Positions 4,984 through 26,900 of a DNA stretch of 64,000 nt are shown piece after piece. Each line of letters opens with the position of its first letter. The first letter of the stretch is position 1. The stretch is taken from IMG/VR virus record IMGVR_UViG_3300045988_149737. One strand, given 5' to 3'. Both the position numbers and the translations under genes were made by a program. The notes under the pieces were generated by a model, which was not told the origin of the DNA, made no database searches, and saw only the letters and a program-made list of their open reading frames with translations. This DNA is from a virus. Lineage: Duplodnaviria > Heunggongvirae > Uroviricota > Caudoviricetes.

Positions 4984-5853
4984 ATGAACTTTACCAAACT
5001 GACTGACCACCTGAAACTTGCCACCGATCGACTCATTGGATTTAAGCCAGAACCATATGAGTTGCATGAAGGCCATGGTGTAGCCACTGAAAGTATTTAC
5101 AAGATGGTCGATCAGTTTCATGAACTCTTCCAGCATCCGAGACGCGTTATGCCGACACCAGAGCTGCTTCGTCTCCGTGCAAGCCTGATTCATGAAGAAG
5201 CTGTAGTGGAAGGGATTCCAGCCGCAATGAATGGGGATATTGAGCAACTGCTGGATGCAATGGCCGACTTTTTATACGTTGGTGTTGGTACGATGGTCTC
5301 CATCAAAGGTGGTATTTCTACCGGCATGACCTATTACACGCAGGAACAGAGCATTGATCGCTTTATGCAGACAATTTTTGTGCCCGGTAACACTGTTTTC
5401 GATGATATGGCAATGCCATTTCAGGAAGCTCGTGAGGCGTCATGTATGCTCGAAGAGCTGGCAGATAAACTTGAGAAGAAGGCTGTTAAGGATTCTGAGC
5501 TGATTCAGGAACTGCGCCGTGTAATGAACAAAATCTATGTGGCGTGCATGATGACTTATCGACTGGCTGATTTCCTCGGTATCAATGTCGTCGAGCTGGT
5601 TGGCGAAATTCATCGGTCTAACATGACAAAATTATGGCCTGCTGATGTTGAGGAACGTCGCCAGGCTGTGGCCAACTGCAAATACGACTCTTCAGATCTG
5701 GGATTCCGCCATGCTGATGGCACCGATAAGATGATCGGTTTTCGAATTTCCGATGGAAAGATTCTGAAGTCTCCAACCTATAGTGATGTCGATTTATCCT
5801 CCTTTGTTGAGCAAGCTAAAGCCTCAGCAATGTACGGAATGATCAAAAAATAA
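4984..5853 (+). CDS. hypothetical protein, possible MazG-like NTP pyrophosphohydrolase N-terminal domain
   Basis: 289 aa; segment LIHEEAVVEGIPAAMNGDIEQLLDAMADFLYV resembles the EExxE...D helical motif of MazG/HisE-type enzymes; sits in the nucleotide-metabolism cluster. Function not established. Confidence 0.5.
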   Translation: MNFTKLTDHLKLATDRLIGFKPEPYELHEGHGVATESIYKMVDQFHELFQHPRRVMPTPELLRLRASLIHEEAVVEGIPAAMNGDIEQLLDAMADFLYVGVGTMVSIKGGISTGMTYYTQEQSIDRFMQTIFVPGNTVFDDMAMPFQEAREASCMLEELADKLEKKAVKDSELIQELRRVMNKIYVACMMTYRLADFLGINVVELVGEIHRSNMTKLWPADVEERRQAVANCKYDSSDLGFRHADGTDKMIGFRISDGKILKSPTYSDVDLSSFVEQAKASAMYGMIKK

Positions 5854-15610: not shown

Positions 15611-16225
15611 ATGTTCGGGATGTCAATTACTCAATCAGATGGAAGTTTGTGGATGAGTCCAGAATTTACTCCGCAAAATCTGATTAATAAAGGGACAATG
15701 TCTACATCTAAAGGTTCTGTTTTTCAAACATCAATCCCATCAAACAAATCATGCTTTTTCTTCATAAAAAGCAGTAATAAGGCGAACATGATGTTTATTC
15801 ATGAGCATAGTAACGGATACAATGCTCTCAGATTGCATCAGGTAAATGGTAGCCCCGGAACAATAACAGTTTATGCTTTTTCTGATATGGTGTTACCACA
15901 TTCTGGCTATGGCATTGCCATGTATAACAGCGCAGGCGCAATGGTGTATCACGGTGAGATGATGCCCCTTGATGCGAAACTTATCACTATTTCTGACCCT
16001 CAATTTACAATAGATATGGGGTATCCATGTGCGGTAATGCCTGCTATGGTTGGGGTATATAACTATAGACGAACCGATTACGACAGACCTGTCTATGTAA
16101 CAATGACAGGTGCAACTGGAAACCAAGTATATAACGGTCAATGGTATTCCGGTAATGTCACATGGGATATTAAGAAGATTTATACAAACAAAATTCTGGT
16201 GATAAATACCTCCAAGTATGATTAG
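15611..16225 (+). CDS. hypothetical protein
   Basis: 204 aa from ATG at 15611, 2 nt after the upstream stop; ORF track start at 15554 overlaps the upstream gene. Confidence 0.45.
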   Translation: MFGMSITQSDGSLWMSPEFTPQNLINKGTMSTSKGSVFQTSIPSNKSCFFFIKSSNKANMMFIHEHSNGYNALRLHQVNGSPGTITVYAFSDMVLPHSGYGIAMYNSAGAMVYHGEMMPLDAKLITISDPQFTIDMGYPCAVMPAMVGVYNYRRTDYDRPVYVTMTGATGNQVYNGQWYSGNVTWDIKKIYTNKILVINTSKYD

Positions 16226-16286
16226 CCAATGCCTTTATTTGAAGGATTGCCTGTTTATTTCTATTTAGTACCTTTTCATTTTTGAA

Positions 16287-16330
16287 ATAATTGCACCATT
16301 AAACAAATCACTTCTTAATGGTGCAATTAT
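16287..16330. promoter_or_regulatory. 16-bp-arm inverted repeat embedding the start codon of the downstream methyltransferase
   Basis: ataattgcaccattaa-(12 nt)-ttaatggtgcaattAT; right arm ends in the ATG at 16329. Confidence 0.5.
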
Positions 16331-18014
16331 GAATACAGCCCTTTCCATCATCGACGATGCCAACTCAAACACTGCTATCGACTATCGGCAGGAAATGAAC
16401 GTCATCCACGAAATTGTGGCCGAGTGCGAGAAAGAGATCGCCTTCATGTATCAGGTACACGACTTCGTTTATGGCGACGAACGCCACAACATGATTAATC
16501 GCCTGCTGAGACTAAACCATCGACCAGATGAAGATCGCTCGCGTTTAAATCGAGGTTGGTTGGATAAAGTCGATCTGGAATGGGTGAAACAGAATATTTG
16601 GGCCGAGTACTGGAGGAAGGTCACGGACATGACTAACGTTTTGCTGATCATGCCAGCTTCCCGTCGAGATGAGTGGCGCGAGCAGTTTATAGAGGGCAAA
16701 CAGGAAGTCATCAAAACTGACAGAACCGGCTACCAGATGAAGGTTAAAGAGTTCGTTGGTGTACCGGAGTTCAAAGCAGAAACGGTCATACCCACGATGC
16801 TTAATTTGCTGAATGACAGGCACAAATATCTCTCTGAGCGCGTGTATGGCTTGTTTAAGGCGCTGAGTCCTGCGCACAAGACAAATAAGACAAACGGTTT
16901 CAGCGAACGTCTGATAATCGCTGACTGCATTTCTGATTTCTGGCGGGACAGCGTTAGTGTGAACTATCGCAAAGAGGACTATATCGACGATCTGCGTGTC
17001 TTGCTTCATTTCTTCGCGCACAAAGAATTTATTACCATCAACCGCACTGCTGAGGTGCTATCAGCTGCGTATCGGGCAAACGACTGCCAGACCGGTGACT
17101 GGATGAACGTCGATGGAAATCTGATGCGCGTGAAGATGTTCAAGAACGGCAACGTTCACTTTGAAATACATCCTGACGTGGCCTGGAAGTTGAATGAGGT
17201 GCTGGCTTACAGTATGCCTGCTGCAATCCCCGCGCCATGTCGCACCGCGCCAAAAACACGGGCACCAAAGCAGTTCGGGTTAATCCAGAAGACGATCTCC
17301 GTGCCGGTTCGCACTGCGCTTCGTGACGGGCGATTGAGCAAAGACAAAGGCGTATGGTACTTCTCTGATTCAGCTCTCCAGAAGTCGCAGGTGGAAGAGC
17401 TTGAGCGCACACTGAGCTTCATTGGCGGCGTGCAGGAGAAAAAGCACTGGCAGTTCCCGTATGACATCGTCCATACGCTAAATACGATTGTGGCTACCGG
17501 TTTAATACCGGATACAAAATCACACCAGTTCTACCCTACCCCACGCTTGATTGCTGAGTACGTTGCCAGAGCCACTGAATTGAAGCCTGGTGAGAAGCTG
17601 CTGGAGCCTCAAGCCGGACGTGGGGATCTTCTGGCCTATATTAACGCCGATCTGGAAGATGTTACCTGCATAGAAATCGCACCTCTCTTCGCTGATATCC
17701 TGCGTGGAAAAGGGTATACGAACACGATTTGCTGCGACTTCATAAAGTGGTCTGAGGACAACGTAGGTTATCAGTTCGACAAAATCGTTATGAACCCGCC
17801 GTATTCGCTTGGTCGTCATAGAGAGCACACGCTGGCTGCGCTGGGGCATCTGAAAGTCGGCGGGCGTCTTGTAGCAGTATTGCCGGGCACTGCGCCAATA
17901 CTGGACTGGATGACGATGGATAATTACGTTTATGCCAGAGGGAAGTCGTTTACCAACGAGTTTGAAGACACAGGGATCACAGTCAGCGTATACGTTTTCA
18001 AACGCGTTAAATGA
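16329..18014 (+). CDS. two-domain protein: unknown N-terminal domain + C-terminal amino-methyltransferase (N6A/N4C type)
   Basis: 561 aa; C-terminal YPTPRLIAEYV, LEPQAGRGDLL (SAM-binding motif I) and VMNPPYS (motif IV); N-terminal ~380 aa without recognised motif. Confidence 0.8.
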   Translation: MNTALSIIDDANSNTAIDYRQEMNVIHEIVAECEKEIAFMYQVHDFVYGDERHNMINRLLRLNHRPDEDRSRLNRGWLDKVDLEWVKQNIWAEYWRKVTDMTNVLLIMPASRRDEWREQFIEGKQEVIKTDRTGYQMKVKEFVGVPEFKAETVIPTMLNLLNDRHKYLSERVYGLFKALSPAHKTNKTNGFSERLIIADCISDFWRDSVSVNYRKEDYIDDLRVLLHFFAHKEFITINRTAEVLSAAYRANDCQTGDWMNVDGNLMRVKMFKNGNVHFEIHPDVAWKLNEVLAYSMPAAIPAPCRTAPKTRAPKQFGLIQKTISVPVRTALRDGRLSKDKGVWYFSDSALQKSQVEELERTLSFIGGVQEKKHWQFPYDIVHTLNTIVATGLIPDTKSHQFYPTPRLIAEYVARATELKPGEKLLEPQAGRGDLLAYINADLEDVTCIEIAPLFADILRGKGYTNTICCDFIKWSEDNVGYQFDKIVMNPPYSLGRHREHTLAALGHLKVGGRLVAVLPGTAPILDWMTMDNYVYARGKSFTNEFEDTGITVSVYVFKRVK

Positions 18015-18015
18015 T

Positions 18016-18032
18016 AGGTAAATACTTACCTA
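18016..18032. promoter_or_regulatory. palindrome TAGGTAA-tac-TTACCTA (family 2 site)
   Basis: 2 nt after the methyltransferase stop. Confidence 0.4.
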
Positions 18033-18075
18033 ATTTGTGTAAGAATGTAGTTACTAAACGATAAGAGAAAAACAC

Positions 18076-18780
18076 ATGAACAACCTCCAGTTAGAGCATT
18101 TTAACGTCACAGGCCATTCTGATTTTCCTTTCAAGTTTACATTGAAAGGTTATGCAGAGGATGCGGTAGGCCAGATCATTATTGATAAAGGCATCGTTAA
18201 GTTTGAGGGGGATTTTGATGAATCCGCGAAAACATTCATAGACTTCGTTGCCAAACGTTGGAGCGAGCAATGGAAAAACCTGGAAAAGCGCGCCAATGAG
18301 TTTGATCGGTTCATGGATGCAATGGATACAGCAAAAGAGGCTCTTGATGCCGGGACTCCGTTAGATCTGGAGTCACTTTTCAACGGCGAAGTGGCCTCTG
18401 CGATGTTTGCCACCATGTTCGCGGGTGAGTTCGTCCGCAGCGGTGCCAAAAACTACCTTGAGCTGGATTACAACGTCCCTGCAATTGGCGATTTCGTCGT
18501 TACCATCCAACGCAAAGAAGGTAAGACGCCAGGTGAACGCGTCGCAGAGCTTGAGGCCGTTGTGGATCAGCGTAACGGAGAGTGTGACCGTTTGATCAAC
18601 GAGCTTCATGCACTTCGGGAAGAAAGAATATGCGCGGGTAGTAATACACGTAATGCAGCGGATATCTACTTCCAGTTAGTTGAGGAATGCCAGATTCCAC
18701 CAGGTGGCTCTCTTGTCGATTACGTAAGACATTTAATGGCGGAAGTTAGCTCCAGCCATAAAGATGGTGAGGTGCGCTGA
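18076..18780 (+). CDS. hypothetical protein
   Basis: 234 aa; RBS agagaaaaa. Confidence 0.5.
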   Translation: MNNLQLEHFNVTGHSDFPFKFTLKGYAEDAVGQIIIDKGIVKFEGDFDESAKTFIDFVAKRWSEQWKNLEKRANEFDRFMDAMDTAKEALDAGTPLDLESLFNGEVASAMFATMFAGEFVRSGAKNYLELDYNVPAIGDFVVTIQRKEGKTPGERVAELEAVVDQRNGECDRLINELHALREERICAGSNTRNAADIYFQLVEECQIPPGGSLVDYVRHLMAEVSSSHKDGEVR

Positions 18781-19160
18781 TGTTTGGCATTGACGCACAG
18801 CGTATAGCCGCTTTTGCAAAAAGCCCTCTTGATAATCCCTTGTCTCGTAGTGAGCAAATGGAGTTGGCAAGGCTTTTTCTTCACATTCAAAAACAGGCAG
18901 ACATTTTCAATAACATGCCTAATCAACCTATTCTGGATGGTCACATCCAGATGGTCATTAACAGTCATGAGAAAGGCTGGGCTGCAATCGTCCCCAGCAC
19001 AATTACATACAAGTTGGCGAAAGAGGTTCAAGAGTTTCGAAAAGCCAGTGTCGAATCTGAGTCTACCAAAGCCGCAATAAACACTCTTATTCGCATGGGA
19101 TTCACATGGAACGGTGGAGCCTACTGGCAAGCACCTCACCCCATTTTATCCGGCAATTAG
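18780..19160 (+). CDS. hypothetical protein
   Basis: 126 aa; start overlaps upstream stop. Confidence 0.45.
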   Translation: MFGIDAQRIAAFAKSPLDNPLSRSEQMELARLFLHIQKQADIFNNMPNQPILDGHIQMVINSHEKGWAAIVPSTITYKLAKEVQEFRKASVESESTKAAINTLIRMGFTWNGGAYWQAPHPILSGN

Positions 19161-19279
19161 ACGCTACAAATCCTTCTGCGTGAATAAATAAAGGCCATAA
19201 GTTGTGGCCTTAAATAAATTGTTTTCTGCCTTTTCTTATTTGTGAAAATAACCACAACTAGAAAACAACGGAGTTAAGA

Positions 19280-19921
19280 ATGTCTAGTATTTCCGAAGCA
19301 CATATGTTCGCCGCTGGCGCTCATGGTGGCGTTGGTCAGAAAAGAAAATATACCGGCGAAAACTACATCAACCACCCGGTTGCTGTCCGAGAGATTGTTG
19401 CATTGCATGACGGAACCGTGGAGATGCAAATCGCGGCGCTTCTGCATGATGTGGTCGAAGACACCCATGTAACCATAGAGATGGTTCGTGATCACTTCGG
19501 TGAGCGCGTAGCTGAAATGGTTCAGGCTCTGACCAACATTGCAAGGCCAGAAGACGGCAATCGAATACAGCGTTTCATCATCAATGTCCGGGAGCTGGAG
19601 CAAAATCTCGACATGCAGACGCGCATGATCAAGCTGGCTGACCTGCTCGACAATACCTCTTCTATCGTGAGTCGCGATCCTGAGTTTTCAGCTATCTACC
19701 TTGCAGAGAAAGAGCTGATGCTGGACGTACTTTTTAACGGGAAGGAGATTGGTGCCAACGCTGATGTTGTCGAGTACATGGAGAGGATAGGTATAGAACA
19801 CCCGTTGTTATTAAGCGCAAAGGCGAAAGTCACTGAAGGTATTGCGCTTCTGAAACCGGTACACATCAAACGTTATGAAAAACACAAATCGCTGATCTGG
19901 AGCGCGTGGGAGGCTGCATGA
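19280..19921 (+). CDS. Rel/SpoT-like HD-domain hydrolase (putative (p)ppGpp hydrolase)
   Basis: YINHPVAVREIVALHDG ... AALLHDVVEDT ... EMVRDHFGERVAEMVQALT is collinear with the hydrolase domain of Rel/SpoT enzymes; no synthetase domain. Confidence 0.8.
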   Translation: MSSISEAHMFAAGAHGGVGQKRKYTGENYINHPVAVREIVALHDGTVEMQIAALLHDVVEDTHVTIEMVRDHFGERVAEMVQALTNIARPEDGNRIQRFIINVRELEQNLDMQTRMIKLADLLDNTSSIVSRDPEFSAIYLAEKELMLDVLFNGKEIGANADVVEYMERIGIEHPLLLSAKAKVTEGIALLKPVHIKRYEKHKSLIWSAWEAA

Positions 19922-20460
19922 AGGTCGAAAAAATAGATGTTCTTTCCTTTGTGCTGACGGATCTGGAACGCCTCGATCCGGTTCGAGTGATGATTGAAAA
20001 CTACGAACCTGGTAAGGGAAGAATCACCATCACCTGCTACGGAAAAGCGTGGACTGCGGCTTGGTTTGCTATGGGCGGTGATGATGTGCAGACGTTCATT
20101 AAGCGAGTTAGCAACGATTATCTAATCGACAATTTCGACCCTCAACTGCTAAGCACGGTCGACGATGACAACGATGCAAATCTGCTTTTCGTAAAGTCAG
20201 AAATCATAAAGTTACGAAGAGAGAGAGAAATAGACGCCGTACTGGCTCGCGAAATGTGGGACGAGGCGGAAAACGCCGATGACGTAAAAGAAAGCTGCTG
20301 TTGTTTCGGCGTCGGTAACAAACTGCTGAATCTCTTTGGTGATGATCCGTGGTATGCCGACTGGCCAACGGTACCAAACCCGAAATACCAGTATCTGGAA
20401 CGCATTGTGAACGCGGTACGTGAAGGGCTGAAAGAGTTAGATAAGTTAGAGGCATCGTAA
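19918..20460 (+). CDS. hypothetical protein
   Basis: ATGA overlap with upstream stop. Confidence 0.45.
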   Translation: MKVEKIDVLSFVLTDLERLDPVRVMIENYEPGKGRITITCYGKAWTAAWFAMGGDDVQTFIKRVSNDYLIDNFDPQLLSTVDDDNDANLLFVKSEIIKLRREREIDAVLAREMWDEAENADDVKESCCCFGVGNKLLNLFGDDPWYADWPTVPNPKYQYLERIVNAVREGLKELDKLEAS

Positions 20461-20903
20461 TGAGAGAGAAAATCAAGAACCCGGTCGTCGTATTGTATAA
20501 ACGGGAAACCAGCGATTCTTATGCGGTATCCATCACTGATGGAAGCCAGAACATGCACGATGGTCTGCTAATGGCCTCCGTATCTCCTGATGATTCTGAC
20601 TACCCTTTCGCCACTTTCGCTATGGTTGGTTACTACATGGCTGCCGAAATTGAGAAGTTGCGTGTTGAGCTGGAGACCGTTAAACAGCGGGAAAAGGATC
20701 TGTTTATGGAAAATGTTCGACTTAAGTCAGGTATAGCAGGTCTGATACACCTCGGTATTCGATATGCGGATGTCGAAGTCATGAAAATAGCTGGAGATGC
20801 CCAGCTTTCTACTCCCTGTACTGACAGCATCATAAACAGTATTGCATCAGGCGTTTTCACCAAAGAGGGTCAGCATGATGAGAACAGTAGAAGTTCGCGC
20901 TGA
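20460..20903 (+). CDS. hypothetical protein
   Basis: 147 aa; start overlaps upstream stop. Confidence 0.45.
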   Translation: MREKIKNPVVVLYKRETSDSYAVSITDGSQNMHDGLLMASVSPDDSDYPFATFAMVGYYMAAEIEKLRVELETVKQREKDLFMENVRLKSGIAGLIHLGIRYADVEVMKIAGDAQLSTPCTDSIINSIASGVFTKEGQHDENSRSSR

Positions 20904-21063
20904 AGATGTAATCCCAGGTGATGTGGTCATAACATCTAAAGGCAAACGATGTGCGGTTAAATCTTTCTGGATGGAAGGTGACAAAGTGACTCTGTTCGGT
21001 ACAGATGGTTCCGAAACGGATTATGACTACGACGAATTGCTTGTTGTTGAGAGAGCTGCCTAA
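20875..21063 (+). CDS. hypothetical small protein
   Basis: 62 aa from ATG at 20875 with RBS agaggg; overlaps end of upstream gene. Confidence 0.35.
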   Translation: MMRTVEVRAEDVIPGDVVITSKGKRCAVKSFWMEGDKVTLFGTDGSETDYDYDELLVVERAA

Positions 21064-21716
21064 TGACCACCGTTAACAATAAGAAATGCTACCCAAGCGA
21101 GAAATATCTTAATGAGCTGATCACCAACATTGAGTTTGCTGCAAGGGCACCAGTTGAAGTCGTGAGAGCGATTGCAGCAGAGCTACAGAAGCACCGTAAG
21201 GCCTATGCCAATACAGCCGCATCTAAGGATGGTTGGATAAGCTGTAGTGAGCGAATGCCTGTAATTGGCGAGCTAAATTGGAGAACTAGTTTTCCTTTAC
21301 TGGTTACGTGTGAGATCGGCGTTATACCTGCTTATTACGGCTTTGTGAGCGTTAATGGTGATAGGCATTATGGCTTTATGGAGAGTCTTAAATACGGAGA
21401 CGATAACGGCAACCATCCTCAAACTAATGAATATGGTCTGATTAGCAATGTCACACACTGGATGCCACTACCAGAACGCCGCAGGAGTCGAACAGTGAAT
21501 AATGCAGAGTTATTTCAGAAAATATCGGCTCTCGCGACTGAATGCCACGCTATAGCATCTGAGCTTGATGTTGGCGATGAACGAACCGAGATGTTCGAAA
21601 TATACAGTGTGCTGCGCAATCTCTGTCGGCGTGGCTACGCCACTCAAGTAGGGCGAATGACTAACCCACTACTCTCATCCTGTGATGAGGATGATTCGGA
21701 TGAGGATGACGAATGA
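21063..21716 (+). CDS. hypothetical protein with acidic C-terminal tail
   Basis: 217 aa ending CDEDDSDEDDE. Confidence 0.5.
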   Translation: MTTVNNKKCYPSEKYLNELITNIEFAARAPVEVVRAIAAELQKHRKAYANTAASKDGWISCSERMPVIGELNWRTSFPLLVTCEIGVIPAYYGFVSVNGDRHYGFMESLKYGDDNGNHPQTNEYGLISNVTHWMPLPERRRSRTVNNAELFQKISALATECHAIASELDVGDERTEMFEIYSVLRNLCRRGYATQVGRMTNPLLSSCDEDDSDEDDE

Positions 21717-22378
21717 TGCATAAATCAGTAGCCGGTGAGTTTCAGAAGGAAGTCGATAATACTACCGTTCTATTGGACGATATTTTAAGCATTCTCGCGC
21801 TTCTTGAGGCTGGCGATTGGTCAGAACATTGCACTAAAACAGAGCTAGGCGGTCGGCTTGAAAGAGAGATTACACGACTTATTGGTGATGCGCAGGAAGC
21901 TACAGTCACTAGTTATGAGTTAATCGCTGAAGCCTGGCGTTTGATGGATGGACAAGATCCTAAAACCAGCGATTGGCATAGCAAGGCTTCGAAGTATTTA
22001 AATTCCGATAGGGTAGAAAAAGTTGATGATGTGAAACCGAAGCCAGTAGACCACGGTTTCCGCGATAACTGCGAATGCTCTAGTTGCCAGACCACGGCCC
22101 GTATTTGTTCTGAATTGACAGATAAGTCCAGCCTAATCTACGAAGTTAATGTAGGCGGTAATACATGGGTCGAATGCACAAGAGCTGCATACGTAAGAGC
22201 AAAAGACAAGGGTGAATTAACCAGAGTTGTTACCAATCACCCAAATAATGAGCTTAAAGATCACCAGATTCGAGAACTGGTGAACGAGTTGAGAGATATT
22301 GCGGTTCAGTACCACGGAACGCAGCAATTGCGGGAGAAGATTGCCAGAGCAGTGAACAACTCAGTCCGTAAAAAATAA
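21713..22378 (+). CDS. hypothetical protein
   Basis: 221 aa; contains CECSSCQ cysteine cluster. Confidence 0.5.
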   Translation: MMHKSVAGEFQKEVDNTTVLLDDILSILALLEAGDWSEHCTKTELGGRLEREITRLIGDAQEATVTSYELIAEAWRLMDGQDPKTSDWHSKASKYLNSDRVEKVDDVKPKPVDHGFRDNCECSSCQTTARICSELTDKSSLIYEVNVGGNTWVECTRAAYVRAKDKGELTRVVTNHPNNELKDHQIRELVNELRDIAVQYHGTQQLREKIARAVNNSVRKK

Positions 22379-22820
22379 GCAATAGTACGATAAAGAGGCC
22401 CCATGCTCTTGATGGGGCCTGTAGCAACTAGCGTTATGGACGCTGGTTTACGTACTCAATGATCGCTTTGATAATCGCGAACATCGGCGGCACGATTTTG
22501 AACAGTAAGTTAACCATAACAGGCCTCACTTAGTTTTATCGCGCCTAGCTGCAAATACCTTTGGGCTTGCCTTTGCAGTTGCAATATCTGTAGTCGCCAG
22601 ATACTTACGGCACGATTTCGAGTTAAGGTAAGGTTTTAGAGTCACCAAAAACCTGGACTTAAATCTTCTTTGAGAACAACGATGTTTAGTAAATGGTCAT
22701 TATTACCTGGTATGACCACTCAACGCTTCTTGATGAATCCAGTACATTCGGTTAATCTTAATTCAGTCGCCAGATACTTATGGCTCAGGAACAGAGACGC
22801 AAACTCTGTTTCCTTTTAAA

Positions 22821-22848
22821 AAGCCCAGCCTAGTCAACTGGGCTTTTT
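22821..22848 (+). terminator. rho-independent terminator
   Basis: aagcccag-cctagtcaa-ctgggctt followed by ttttt. Confidence 0.5.
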
Positions 22849-23145
22849 AACGTCTGTTTTTTAACCCAACACACCCTCAATACTGCAACATCAGTGTCTT
22901 GCAACCTAAGATAGTGTCTGTAGGTTCTTCATGCAAGTGCATAACTCAGTGGATAACTCATGAAGGAAAAAGTAGCTTCCGCGCAATTTAGACCAGACAA
23001 GGTCTTCGCAAAAGTCAACGGAAAGAGAAAAATTTGTTAAAAATAACGTTTGTTGGAATTGTATATATTTATGCCTTTCAATAGTTAGCATCTTATTAAC
23101 ATCTTTTTTAAGAGATAGAGTTCAAAAATATATAGCTTCAACATA

Positions 23146-23165
23146 TACTGTATGTATATACAGTG
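23146..23165. promoter_or_regulatory. LexA (SOS) box
   Basis: TACTGTATGTATATACAGTG fits CTGT-N8-ACAG, 17 nt upstream of the UmuD'-like gene. Confidence 0.7.
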
Positions 23166-23181
23166 TTAAGAGGCGAGTATT

Positions 23182-23571
23182 ATGGGCTTCCCTTCTCCTG
23201 CGGCGGATTATGCTGAGAGCCGTATTTCTCTTGATCAGCAGATAATTAGACATCCTTCAGCGACCTACTTCATGAGGGCAGCTGATAGTCATCATCGTGA
23301 GGGAATATTACAGGGTGCATTGCTGGTGGTCGATTCCTCACTTACCCCGGTTGATGGTTCTCTGCTTGTATGCGCTCTGGATGGGGAATATCGCGTAAAA
23401 AGATACCGGAAGTATCCACGTCAGCATCTGGAGGATTTAAGAACCGGTAAGAAGGAAGCATTGCCAAAGGATGACGATGGATGCACGGGCAGCAATGCCG
23501 TGTTTGGTGTGATCACTCACATTATCAACGACGCAAGAAGTGGCGAGTTTGATGATTGTCCCGTGATGTAG
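23182..23571 (+). CDS. UmuD'-like peptidase S24 protein (HumD-like, lacks N-terminal arm)
   Basis: 129 aa; begins MGFPSPAADY, i.e. at the position of the UmuD Cys-Gly self-cleavage site; Ser (AADSH) and Lys (VKR) at the catalytic dyad positions; SOS box upstream; no umuC-like gene follows. Confidence 0.75.
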   Translation: MGFPSPAADYAESRISLDQQIIRHPSATYFMRAADSHHREGILQGALLVVDSSLTPVDGSLLVCALDGEYRVKRYRKYPRQHLEDLRTGKKEALPKDDDGCTGSNAVFGVITHIINDARSGEFDDCPVM

Positions 23572-23583
23572 GAGAACTGATTA

Positions 23584-23608
23584 GGCGGTGCATTGCACCG
23601 CCTTTTTA
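23584..23608. terminator. bidirectional terminator between UmuD'-like gene and apbC
   Basis: ggcggtgca-t-tgcaccgcc hairpin, T-run on plus strand, A-run before it. Confidence 0.55.
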
Positions 23609-24709
23609 TCACACTGCGCGGAATGCGATTTCGCCAGGTATTACTTCACCTTGCCAATACATTTGGGCAGCAACGCGATCTGCGAGGTCACGATAAATAG
23701 CCGTAAATTCGCTATCTGGACGACTAATAACGGTTGGTGTTCCGTTATCCAGATCTTCACGAAGTGAGATATGAAGTGGCATTTGGCCTAACAACAGCGT
23801 GTTGTATTTCTCGGCCAGTTTCTGTGCGCCACCAGTGCCAAAAATTGGCTCGTGATGACCGCAGTTACTGCAAATATGCACACTCATGTTTTCGACGATA
23901 CCCAGTACCGGCACTTCGACTTTTTCGAACATCACAATGCCTTTCTTCGCATCGATCAGCGCGATGTCTTGCGGCGTAGTTACCACAACCGCACCAGTTA
24001 CAGGAATGTTCTGCGCCAGCGTCAACTGAATATCACCAGTGCCCGGCGGCATATCGAGAACGAGATAGTCCAGATCAGGCCACAGTGTTTCTTGCAACAT
24101 TTGCATCAACGCCTTGCTCGCCATAGGGCCACGCCACACCATCGCGTTGTCGTCAGTGACCAGATAACCAATTGAATTGGTTGCCAGGCCATGAGACATA
24201 ATAGGTGCCATGTGAGTACCGTCTGGTGAGGTTGGACGTTGGTTTTCCGCGCCCAGCATGGTTGGAATTGATGGCCCGTAGATATCGGCATCAAGAATGC
24301 CAACTTTCGCACCTTCAGCGGCTAACGCCAGCGCAAGGTTTACCGCCGTGGAAGATTTACCTACCCCACCCTTGCCTGAGCTGACGGCGATAATGTTCTT
24401 AACGCCATTAATGCCTGGTTGGTTTTTAACGCGCTTCAGCGTGGCAATGTTGTGAGACAGCTTCCAGTCGATAGCCTTTGCACCAGTGATACGGAGCAGA
24501 TCACCACTACATTGCTCTTTCAGGTCTTCAAAAGGCTTATTCCACACGAAAGGCATGATTAGTTCGACATGCAGTGTGTCATCCATCAACGCAACATGGT
24601 GTAACGCTTTAAGCGTAGTCAGGTTGTGTTTCAGGGTTGGGTGCTGAAAATTAGCCAGCGTACCGGCTACCATTGCTCTCAGGGCATCCGGCGATTTGGA
24701 CTCGCTCAT
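23609..24709 (-). CDS. apbC: iron-sulfur cluster carrier ATPase ApbC/Mrp
   Basis: 366 aa; P-loop SSGKGGVGKSS, CxxC (CSNCGH); collinear with my recollection of enterobacterial Mrp; divergent from metG as in E. coli; RBS aggag. Confidence 0.9.
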   Translation of the reverse strand: MSESKSPDALRAMVAGTLANFQHPTLKHNLTTLKALHHVALMDDTLHVELIMPFVWNKPFEDLKEQCSGDLLRITGAKAIDWKLSHNIATLKRVKNQPGINGVKNIIAVSSGKGGVGKSSTAVNLALALAAEGAKVGILDADIYGPSIPTMLGAENQRPTSPDGTHMAPIMSHGLATNSIGYLVTDDNAMVWRGPMASKALMQMLQETLWPDLDYLVLDMPPGTGDIQLTLAQNIPVTGAVVVTTPQDIALIDAKKGIVMFEKVEVPVLGIVENMSVHICSNCGHHEPIFGTGGAQKLAEKYNTLLLGQMPLHISLREDLDNGTPTVISRPDSEFTAIYRDLADRVAAQMYWQGEVIPGEIAFRAV

Positions 24710-24866
24710 CCCGTCTCCTTTATTTTAATTTGCGCAATTGTCGCCTTGTAGTGTACTCCAGCTACGACATTTAATCATTTATGAGAAATGCTGTTATCAC
24801 ATGGCAGACATAAGGCCATTTTGTTACTATCAAGCCCCTTTTCACTACAAAGAAGTAATGCCTACT

Positions 24867-26900
24867 ATGACCCAAGTCGCGAAGAAAATTCTGGTGACGT
24901 GCGCGCTGCCGTACGCTAACGGCTCAATCCACCTCGGCCATATGCTGGAGCACATCCAGGCTGATGTCTGGGTTCGTTACCAGCGAATGCGCGGCCACGA
25001 GGTTAATTTCATCTGTGCCGACGATGCCCACGGTACGCCGATCATGCTGAAAGCACAGCAGCTTGGTATCACACCGGAGCAGATGATTGGCGAAATGAGT
25101 CAGGAACACCAGACTGATTTCGCAGGCTTTAACATCAGCTATGACAACTATCACTCGACGCACAGCGAAGAGAACCGTCAGTTGTCTGAGCTTATCTATA
25201 CTCGCCTGAAAGAGAACGGTTTTATTAAAAACCGCACTATCTCTCAGTTGTACGACCCGGAAAAAGGCATGTTCCTGCCGGATCGTTTTGTAAAAGGCAC
25301 CTGCCCGAAATGTAAAGCGCCAGATCAATACGGCGATAACTGTGAAGTCTGCGGCGCAACATATAGCCCGACTGAATTGATCGAGCCGAAATCGGTGGTT
25401 TCTGGCGCTACCCCGGTAATGCGTGATTCCGAACACTTCTTCTTTGATCTGCCTTCTTTCAGCGAAATGCTGCAGGCATGGACCCGCAGCGGCGCGTTGC
25501 AGGAGCAGGTGGCGAACAAAATGCAGGAATGGTTTGAATCCGGCCTGCAACAGTGGGATATCTCCCGCGATGCGCCTTACTTCGGTTTTGAAATTCCGAA
25601 CGCGCCGGGCAAATATTTCTACGTCTGGCTGGACGCGCCGATTGGCTACATGGGTTCCTTCAAGAATCTGTGCGACAAGCGCGGCGATACCACCAGCTTC
25701 GATGAATACTGGAAGAAAGACTCCACCGCCGAGCTGTACCACTTCATCGGTAAAGATATTGTTTACTTCCACAGCCTGTTCTGGCCTGCCATGCTGGAAG
25801 GCAGCAACTTCCGCAAGCCGACCAACCTGTTTGTTCATGGCTATGTGACGGTGAACGGCGCGAAGATGTCCAAGTCTCGCGGCACGTTCATTAAAGCCAG
25901 CACCTGGCTGAATCATTTTGACGCTGATAGCTTGCGCTACTACTACACCGCGAAACTCTCTTCGCGCATCGATGATATCGACCTGAACCTGGAAGATTTC
26001 GTTCAGCGCGTGAATGCCGATATCGTCAACAAAGTGGTTAACCTGGCCTCCCGTAATGCAGGCTTTATCAACAAGCGTTTTGACGGCGTGCTGGCAAGCG
26101 AACTGGCTGACCCTGAACTGTACAAAACCTTTACCGATGCCGCTGAAGTGATTGGCGAAGCATGGGAAAGCCGCGAATTTGGTAAAGCTATCCGTGAAAT
26201 CATGGCATTGGCTGACCTGGCTAACCGCTATGTCGATGAACAGGCTCCGTGGGTGGTGGCGAAGCAGGAAGGTCGCGATGCCGATCTGCAAGCGATTTGC
26301 TCTATGGGCATTAACCTGTTCCGCGTGCTGATGACGTACCTGAAACCGGTACTGCCGAAACTGACTGAACGTGCGGAAGCGTTCCTGAATACGGAACTGA
26401 CCTGGGATGGTATCCAGCAACCGCTGCTGGCACATAAAGTGAATCCGTTCAAAGCACTGTATAACCGCATCGACATGAAGCAGGTTGAAGCACTGGTGGA
26501 AGCATCCAAAGAAGAAGTGAAAGCCACCGCCGCGCCAGTTACTGGCCCGCTGGCTGATGATCCGATTCAGGAAACCATCACCTTTGACGACTTCGCCAAA
26601 GTTGACCTGCGTGTGGCACTGATTGAAAACGCGGAGTTTGTTGAAGGCTCTGACAAACTGCTGCGTCTGACACTGGATCTCGGTGGTGAAAAGCGTAATG
26701 TCTTCTCCGGCATCCGTTCTGCTTATCCAGACCCACAGGCACTGATTGGTCGTCACACCATTATGGTGGCTAACCTGGCTCCGCGTAAAATGCGCTTCGG
26801 TATCTCCGAAGGCATGGTGATGGCTGCTGGCCCTGGCGGAAAAGACATCTTCCTGTTAAGCCCGGATGCCGGTGCTAAACCAGGCCACCAAGTTAAGTAA
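24867..26900 (+). CDS. metG: methionyl-tRNA synthetase
   Basis: 677 aa from ATG at 24867 ([30 protein letters not shown]); matches E. coli MetG as I recall it; ORF track start at 24738 is an upstream in-frame extension. Confidence 0.95.

Follow-up and report, generated by a model that had tools for sequence, protein, structure and literature searches.

Salmonella phage SSU5 encodes a small alarmone hydrolase (SAH), SSU5_099, which was tested under the name 'PaSpo' by Jimmy et al. (PNAS 2020; PMC7229694). When expressed alone, PaSpo neutralised five of five validated toxic small alarmone synthetases (toxSASs), CapRel, PhRel2, FaRel2, PhRel and FaRel (PMC7229694, Table 1), and the authors proposed that phages could evade alarmone-based defence by means of such hydrolases. 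FaRel is a (pp)pApp producer (PMC7229694). Kurata et al. reported that FaRel2, PhRel, PhRel2 and CapRel are not alarmone makers and instead pyrophosphorylate tRNA at its 3'-CCA end, and that MESH1 and ATfaRel remove the tRNA pyrophosphate in vitro (bioRxiv 10.1101/2021.04.30.441581). SSU5 PaSpo has served as a laboratory tool to detoxify over-expressed PhRel2 (bioRxiv 10.1101/2021.04.30.441581), and has also been employed to over-express FaRel2 and CapRelSJ46. The literature on PaSpo and toxSASs yielded no assay of PaSpo itself in vitro; it was with MESH1 and ATfaRel that dephosphorylation of tRNA was measured.

Several other RelA/SpoT-homologue (RSH) hydrolases provide points of comparison. 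ATfaRel-type SAHs are hydrolase-only RSHs that neutralised every toxSAS tested and that do so by attacking what the toxin makes, not by binding the toxin itself (PMC7229694), and in vitro ATfaRel restored aminoacylation of pyrophosphorylated tRNA (bioRxiv 10.1101/2021.04.30.441581). toxSASs are neutralised by MESH1 as well (PMC7229694; bioRxiv 10.1101/2021.04.30.441581). Aph1, from a Bacteroides caccae prophage, is a single-domain HD hydrolase directed against a pyrophosphokinase toxin; it does not hydrolyse (p)ppGpp (PMC10083569). In the long RSHs SpoT and Rel, the hydrolase is regulated by synthetase, TGS and ACT domains. We found no paper testing the part played by the SAH gene in infection, induction or persistence of an SSU5-like element, no direct test of a phage SAH as counter-defence, and no study of SSU5-like phage-plasmids and ppGpp.

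We analysed a stretch of viral DNA of 64,000 nucleotides (the window) in which a sequence-only reading had described a phage-encoded Rel/SpoT-like HD hydrolase without a synthetase domain. The gene in question and its ribosome-binding site are located as follows.

19280..19921, plus strand: SAH gene, orthologue of SSU5_099 (PaSpo), assigned from the open reading frame, profile matches, orthology, an AlphaFold2 model and fold matches

19270-19273, plus strand: GGAG ribosome-binding site (Shine-Dalgarno) of the SAH gene, read in the sequence, 6 nt before the ATG

The open reading frame starts with ATG and encodes 213 amino acids, the coordinates including the stop codon. Searches against RSH hydrolase profiles, the check proposed with the original description, gave matches far above chance. 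Pfam HD_4 (PF13328) matched residues 8-135 at E=1.2e-18 (67.8 bits, cut-off 27.2), NCBIfam TIGR00691 (spoT_relA) matched at E=1.2e-24, and PHROG 990 'metal-dependent phosphohydrolase' matched at E=1.4e-54. HD_4 and the overlapping general HD model (PF01966) were the only Pfam models above cut-off, and no synthetase (RelA_SpoT), TGS or ACT domain was detected in the 213 residues by profile searches, in agreement with the earlier description of a hydrolase-only protein. The models of long RSHs matched SAH over their N-terminal ~125-150 positions only (positions 1-123 of 687 for TIGR00691 and 23-152 of 702 for the SpoT equivalog model), indicating that SAH corresponds to the hydrolase domain alone. 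These matches identify the predicted product of 19280..19921 as a single-domain RSH hydrolase, i.e. a small alarmone hydrolase. SAH had no model match in PADLOC, a library of defence rather than counter-defence systems.

Active-site residues were located by aligning SAH with 38 relatives, down to 42% identity. The codons concerned are the following.

19373..19375, plus strand: codon of H32, the first metal-binding His, in the 'NHP' motif; invariant in the 38 family members and aligned with the conserved HP His of SpoT, Rel and MESH1

19445..19462, plus strand: codons from H56-D57 (catalytic HD) to E60-D61 (ED) in LLHDVVEDT; by alignment, the same motif as in SpoT, Rel and MESH1

19631..19654, plus strand: codons of K118-L-A-D121-L-L-D-N125, the KLAD..N motif; aligned with KLADRxHN / KLADKLYN of long RSHs and MESH1

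Residues R22, Y24, T25, Y29, H32, P33, H56, E60, D61, K118, D121 and N125 were invariant in the family, and D57 was conserved in at least 90% of the 38 relatives. The conserved residues align with those that bind metal or take part in catalysis in SpoT, Rel and MESH1. The catalytic His-Asp pair is H56-D57 (nt 19445-19450), followed by E60-D61 (nt 19457-19462), and within the KLAD..N motif D121 corresponds by alignment to the last metal-binding Asp and N125 to the substrate-contacting Asn. The key HD residues, on which the hydrolase reading depended, were intact in SAH and conserved across this alignment. Both parts of the motif block quoted in the sequence-only reading were present, HPVAVREIVALHDG as residues 32-45 and AALLHDVVEDT as residues 52-62; however, the 'HD' of ALHDG (residues 43-44) is not the catalytic pair.

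An AlphaFold2 model of SAH built from the family alignment was all-helical, with 12 helices (pLDDT 96.6, pTM 0.92). In a fold search of this model against the PDB, all 39 matches at E<=0.001 were RSH hydrolases, including MESH1, bacterial SAHs and Rel/SpoT hydrolase domains. The top match was MESH1 3nr1, with a TM score of 0.82 (normalised to MESH1), an rmsd of 2.4 A and 26% identity. The fold is common to many phage proteins in BFVD. When solved structures were compared by sequence, the best relatives were the hydrolase domains of A. baumannii SpoT and mycobacterial Rel, together with human MESH1, Listeria Lmo0812, RelSeq and T. thermophilus Rel; lower ranks were taken by bacterial SAHs and by Aph1, a ppApp hydrolase.

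These comparisons also indicate where SAH departs from the described enzymes. The long RSHs SpoT and Rel (PDB 7qpr, 5xnx, 1vj7, 6s2t) are the best solved sequence matches (E 3e-13 to 5e-11) and have the same catalytic motifs, whereas their regulatory synthetase, TGS and ACT domains are all absent from SAH. MESH1 of human and Drosophila (PDB 3nr1, 3nqw, 5vxa) shares the H / HD / ED / D / N active-site pattern but is a eukaryotic protein of 179 aa, and the SSU5-clade SAH differs by an insertion of ~17 residues and by a longer helical extension at its C-terminus. ATfaRel belongs to another SAH subfamily (Atkinson/Jimmy) and adjoins its toxSAS, whereas the SAH described here has no synthetase neighbour. 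Aph1 (PDB 7smg, E=2e-06) is likewise a single-domain hydrolase, but it is far more distant, has 149 aa and adjoins its toxin (PMC10083569).

By comparison, the similarity to SSU5_099 (YP_006906731.1) was extensive. Both proteins have 213 aa and are identical at 186 of 213 positions (87%) with zero gaps; all catalytic residues are common to both, and the 27 substitutions lie mostly in the C-terminal third. The gene order is also that of SSU5, namely a DUF4942 methylase gene, two small ORFs, the SAH gene and a coupled downstream small ORF, with the neighbours (methylase, two upstream ORFs and downstream ORF) showing 62-92% identity to their SSU5 counterparts. Comparison of the two SAH alleles gave dS 0.33, dN 0.06 and dN/dS 0.18, the ratio indicating purifying selection on the gene. 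The elements are of the same type, and their hosts differ (Salmonella for SSU5, E. coli here). We conclude from identity and gene order that SAH is the E. coli phage-plasmid orthologue of PaSpo. Its assignment to the PaSpo subfamily (Atkinson 2011 / Jimmy 2020) is by proxy, through 87% identity and synteny to the SSU5 protein so classified. Rescue from a toxic small alarmone synthetase, the assay suggested with the original description, has been published as positive for this 87%-identical orthologue (PMC7229694).

The window was 98-99.8% identical to ~109-kb non-mobilizable E. coli plasmids. Its first 25 kb were 98.4-98.5% identical to these plasmids, and the 3.8 kb around SAH were 99.8% identical to E. 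coli pRHB14-C22_3 (CP057798.1, 108,954 bp, non-mobilizable) and to dozens of ~109-kb plasmids. Annotation of the plasmids lists terminase, portal, major capsid, tape-measure and tail genes, as well as ParB-domain genes, nrdAB, thymidylate synthase, DHFR, RNase HI, a Dam-type methylase, metG and apbC. The closest phage records were Salmonella phage SSU5 and Escherichia phages Cyrano, CMS-2020a and PhiR41_1. The virion genes of the near-identical plasmids and the relation to SSU5 and Cyrano bear out the statement that the hydrolase is phage-encoded, and on these similarities the window is best described as an SSU5-like phage-plasmid of E. coli.

Profile searches revealed no synthetase domain in the eight ORFs neighbouring SAH, and no RelA/SpoT synthetase is named in the PGAP annotation of the 98-99.8% identical plasmid over the stretch matching the window. 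On the strand that carries the SAH gene there is an extended series of genes for nucleotide metabolism and replication (nrdAB, thymidylate synthase, DHFR, a PRA-PH/MazG-like pyrophosphohydrolase and RNase HI). ARAGORN detected neither tRNA nor tmRNA genes in the 64-kb window, and no Rfam family reached the gathering threshold anywhere in the 64 kb.

Other genes of the element deserve mention in their own right. The 289-aa product of 4984-5853 (plus strand) contains a PRA-PH / MazG-type nucleotide pyrophosphohydrolase domain (Pfam PF01503, 1.3e-08) and is the element's second nucleotide-pyrophosphate hydrolase. Phage MazG proteins have been discussed in relation to (p)ppGpp. Upstream of SAH, 16329-18014 (plus strand) encodes a 561-aa protein with DUF4942 at residues 140-295 and a C-terminal methyltransferase region that matches PADLOC mad2 and type II MTase models (~394-523); this product is probably a DNA methylase of an orphan, anti-restriction type. 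A few kb downstream of SAH are genes for a UmuD-like S24 peptidase (23182-23571, plus strand), an ApbC/Mrp-type Fe-S carrier ATPase (23609-24709, minus strand) and a full-length methionyl-tRNA synthetase with catalytic, anticodon-binding and tRNA_bind domains (24738-26900, plus strand). It is curious that the element encodes a MetRS close to a hydrolase with a possible role in repairing tRNA 3' ends.

A sigma-70 scan yielded fewer promoter-like matches than were obtained in shuffles, and nothing convincing was found upstream of the SAH gene. One structured segment lies in the 119 bp that separate the SAH gene from the upstream ORF.

19191..19211, no strand assigned: G+C-rich 7-bp hairpin, AAGGCCA-loop-TGGCCTT

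The hairpin had a terminator-like score on the minus strand and was retained in both the MFE and the centroid folds of the plus-strand RNA (z=-2.9 for the 131-nt intergenic RNA). It possibly marks a transcription-unit boundary. The hairpin lies within 44 nt (19188-19231) that are found again, with 82% identity, elsewhere in PhiR41_1 (L012 8772-8815) and that may be a repeated intergenic element.

Comparison of the window with related phages by blastn revealed that the SAH gene and the gene that follows it form a discrete unit.

19255..20459, plus strand: 1.2-kb presence/absence cassette (ribosome-binding site, SAH gene and ORF19918), defined by blastn against phages Cyrano and PhiR41_1

19918..20460, plus strand: ORF19918, downstream gene of 180 aa, PF26211 / 'phiTE_072 family'; its ATG overlaps the SAH stop codon (ATGA)

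The flanks (16000-19254 and 20654-24000) were 98% identical to Cyrano, whereas nothing corresponded to 19255-20459 in that phage, where the two flanking matches are separated by 44 bp (L011 4255 to 4299). PhiR41_1 showed the same break (L012 3752-3800), and the flanks of both phages were 96-98% identical to the window. One break point precedes the SAH start codon by 25 bp and the other falls exactly on the following ORF's start codon, and these positions at gene boundaries suggest gene-boundary cassette exchange. As the cassette is present or absent as one unit relative to Cyrano and PhiR41_1, SAH and ORF19918 have been gained or lost together in the E. coli/Salmonella lineage.

ORF19918 matches PHROG 3451; its homologues carry PF26211 in precomputed annotation and the PGAP name 'phiTE_072 family'. 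They are widespread in enterobacterial prophages, many of them on Mb-size chromosomal contigs. Searches of the local Pfam, NCBIfam and PADLOC libraries gave no synthetase or other match for ORF19918. Its AlphaFold2 model (pLDDT 86) consists of an N-terminal beta-sheet plus helices and had no fold match in the PDB below E=0.1, indicating that ORF19918 does not have an RSH synthetase fold.

The surroundings of SAH differ outside this lineage. In Klebsiella SSU5-like elements, a SAH of 51% identity lies directly upstream of the DUF4942 methylase gene, which is the only neighbour that stays close to it, in reversed order, the other E. coli neighbours being absent. Marine phage contigs carry a 171-aa SAH relative beside gyrase and topoisomerase genes. 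As gene contexts differ in the Klebsiella phage-plasmids and the marine phage contigs, a conserved partner gene across the SAH family was rejected. We conclude that SAH is a stand-alone gene.

Among 5,426 complete E. coli genomes, 41 contained the SAH gene, and its 43 locations were all on plasmids and none on a chromosome; these counts are megablast estimates that may miss diverged alleles. The neighbouring DUF4942 methylase gene was present in 251 of the same genomes, so that about one in six related E. coli elements carries SAH. Most related E. coli phage-plasmids lack the gene, as do the isolated phages Cyrano and PhiR41_1, so that it is dispensable. Relatives of SAH were detected by tblastn in 247 phage records and 350 plasmid records, and among the phage records sampled many carriers were jumbo-size (>200 kb) phages of Pseudomonas, Erwinia, Serratia and Klebsiella.

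Altered forms of the protein were also encountered among the relatives. P0011 is a 139-aa SAH truncation ending in ...PEFSAI, found on 139 contigs in Enterobacteriaceae, and P0009, an E. coli relative of 231 aa with 62-63% identity, reads LLHGVIEDT, its catalytic Asp being replaced by Gly (HG for HD). Both look like decaying or repurposed alleles. In P0012 an N-terminus resembling that of the upstream ORF18076 is fused to the SAH C-terminus, and in P0010 a P-loop (GAQGSGKT) N-terminus is fused to SAH from 'EDT' on, with loss of H32 and H56-D57. PHROG 3451 (287 positions) matches the N-terminus of ORF18076 (18076-18780) at positions 13-101 and all of ORF19918 at positions 105-282, which implies that single proteins uniting the two exist elsewhere. 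The two fusions and the split of PHROG 3451 are evidence of frequent deletion and recombination in this region. The distribution and the decayed alleles fit a gene of accessory character, situated in an early region that is prone to recombination and contains many lambdoid 'ea'-type genes.

The explanation that we favour, with a probability of roughly 80%, is that SAH is a stand-alone PaSpo orthologue that would act as a 3'-pyrophosphohydrolase and serve as an accessory counter-defence or host-takeover gene of the phage-plasmid. Judging from its family, SAH would be a metal-dependent HD-domain enzyme that removes the 3'-pyrophosphate of (p)ppGpp and (p)ppApp, and it probably also strips the 3'-pyrophosphate from the pyrophosphorylated 3'-CCA end of tRNA. 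As four of the five toxins neutralised by the orthologue modify this tRNA end, the substrates of SAH are probably not limited to (p)ppGpp and (p)ppApp. This allele would be expected to neutralise toxSASs in the same way as the SSU5 protein, both the (pp)pApp-making FaRel and the tRNA-modifying CapRel, PhRel, PhRel2 and FaRel2, acting alone on the toxin's product with no need of a partner protein. It would thereby undo the product of toxSAS abortive-infection systems, e.g. CapRel of competing Salmonella or E. coli prophages, and would at the same time hold (p)ppGpp low. CapRelSJ46 genes occur in a Salmonella phage and in prophages of E. coli, and the toxin would thus be a natural target of SAH within the same host range. 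A bolder proposal is that the cassette (19255-20459) constitutes a mobile two-gene counter-defence module, in which either ORF19918 or the C-terminal insertion/extension of the SSU5-clade SAH directs the hydrolase to pyrophosphorylated tRNA, such that SSU5-like phage-plasmids overcome the CapRel-type immunity of competing prophages; we consider this speculative and give it little chance of being correct.

The main job of the same enzyme could instead be degradation of host (p)ppGpp, which would prevent stringent shut-down of transcription, translation and nucleotide supply in lytic growth, or alter the growth or persistence of lysogens. This possibility is consistent with the finding that the closest solved sequence relatives, the SpoT and Rel domains, are genuine (p)ppGpp hydrolases, with the position of the gene in a same-strand run of nucleotide-metabolism and replication genes, and with the discussion by Jimmy et al. 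of alarmone build-up as a phage barrier (PMC7229694). However, presence in only about one-sixth of related E. coli elements is unexpected of a core function in host takeover, E. coli has its own SpoT, and we found no (p)ppGpp measurement in lysogens or infected cells in the literature. Stringent control as the primary role is therefore possible but rather doubtful, and it and counter-defence are not mutually exclusive.

Lysogenic-conversion immunity against (p)ppApp toxins would place SAH alongside Aph1, the toxins being either of the Tas1 type delivered by the T6SS of competitors or of the MuF-fused Apk2 type of phages. The neutralisation of the (pp)pApp producer FaRel by SSU5 PaSpo (PMC7229694) and the protection against Apk2 and Tas1 conferred by the prophage hydrolase Aph1 (PMC10083569) provide precedents, and plasmid maintenance of the element implies that SAH could be expressed in lysogens. 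Against this, the similarity of SAH to Aph1 (7smg, E=2e-06) is much weaker than that to (p)ppGpp hydrolases (E~1e-12 to 1e-13), and no (p)ppApp synthetase or MuF-toxin gene is adjacent, leaving such immunity an improbable function. A (p)ppApp-specific hydrolase of the Aph1 type was rejected on the same comparison, the stronger matches being to SpoT, Rel and MESH1, and on the lack of a toxin neighbour.

The substrate of SAH might also be another 2'/3'-phosphorylated nucleotide rather than an alarmone, as proposed for MESH1 (NADPH, with a PAPS complex solved). MESH1 is the best structural match of SAH, PDB entries 5vxa (NADPH) and 9chy (PAPS) show that the fold takes such ligands, and promiscuity of SAHs is reported (PMC9765508). 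We nevertheless regard this substrate as very improbable; the in vivo phenotype of the orthologue is toxSAS neutralisation (PMC7229694), and the genomic context contains no pointer to NADPH or sulfur metabolism. The possibilities of stringent control, (p)ppApp immunity and non-alarmone substrates are variations on the same enzyme.

The idea that SAH and ORF19918 make up a two-gene toxin-antitoxin or addiction module, with SAH as the antitoxin, is largely refuted and receives almost no weight from us: the ATGA overlap, the gain or loss of both genes as one 1.2-kb cassette in the E. coli/Salmonella lineage and the precedent of ATfaRel as an SAH antitoxin (PMC7229694) are in its favour, but ORF19918 lacks a synthetase or other match in the local Pfam, NCBIfam and PADLOC libraries, its model (pLDDT 86) resembles no solved fold at E<0.1 and hence no RSH synthetase, PF26211 is common in chromosomal prophage contexts whereas SAH was never chromosomal in the 5,426 E. 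coli genomes, SAH occurs without ORF19918 in Klebsiella phage-plasmids and marine phages, and SSU5 PaSpo was expressed alone with no partner requirement reported (PMC7229694). The pairing of the two genes as toxin and antitoxin was discarded because no synthetase or toxin signature was found with Pfam, NCBIfam, PADLOC, PHROGs, structure prediction or fold search and the ORF19918 family is widespread without SAH, and an ATfaRel-like type IV toxSAS antitoxin was discarded because no synthetase domain was found in the eight neighbouring ORFs and no synthetase is named in the PGAP annotation of the near-identical plasmid.

Both the observation of a phage-encoded SAH and its interpretation hold, but this kind of gene has already been published and characterised; as the hydrolase idea is already in print, the present result is not a discovery. 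PaSpo-type hydrolases are already in laboratory use for taming such toxins, and the gene described here is one more allele. What is added is the accessory, plasmid-only distribution in E. coli and the 1.2-kb presence/absence cassette relative to Cyrano. Phage alarmone hydrolases are a plausible answer to both toxSAS abortive-infection systems and stringent-response shut-down, and the near-isogenic natural pair formed by this element, which has the SAH cassette, and Cyrano, which does not, is suited to a clean test of counter-defence in the hydrolase's own phage.
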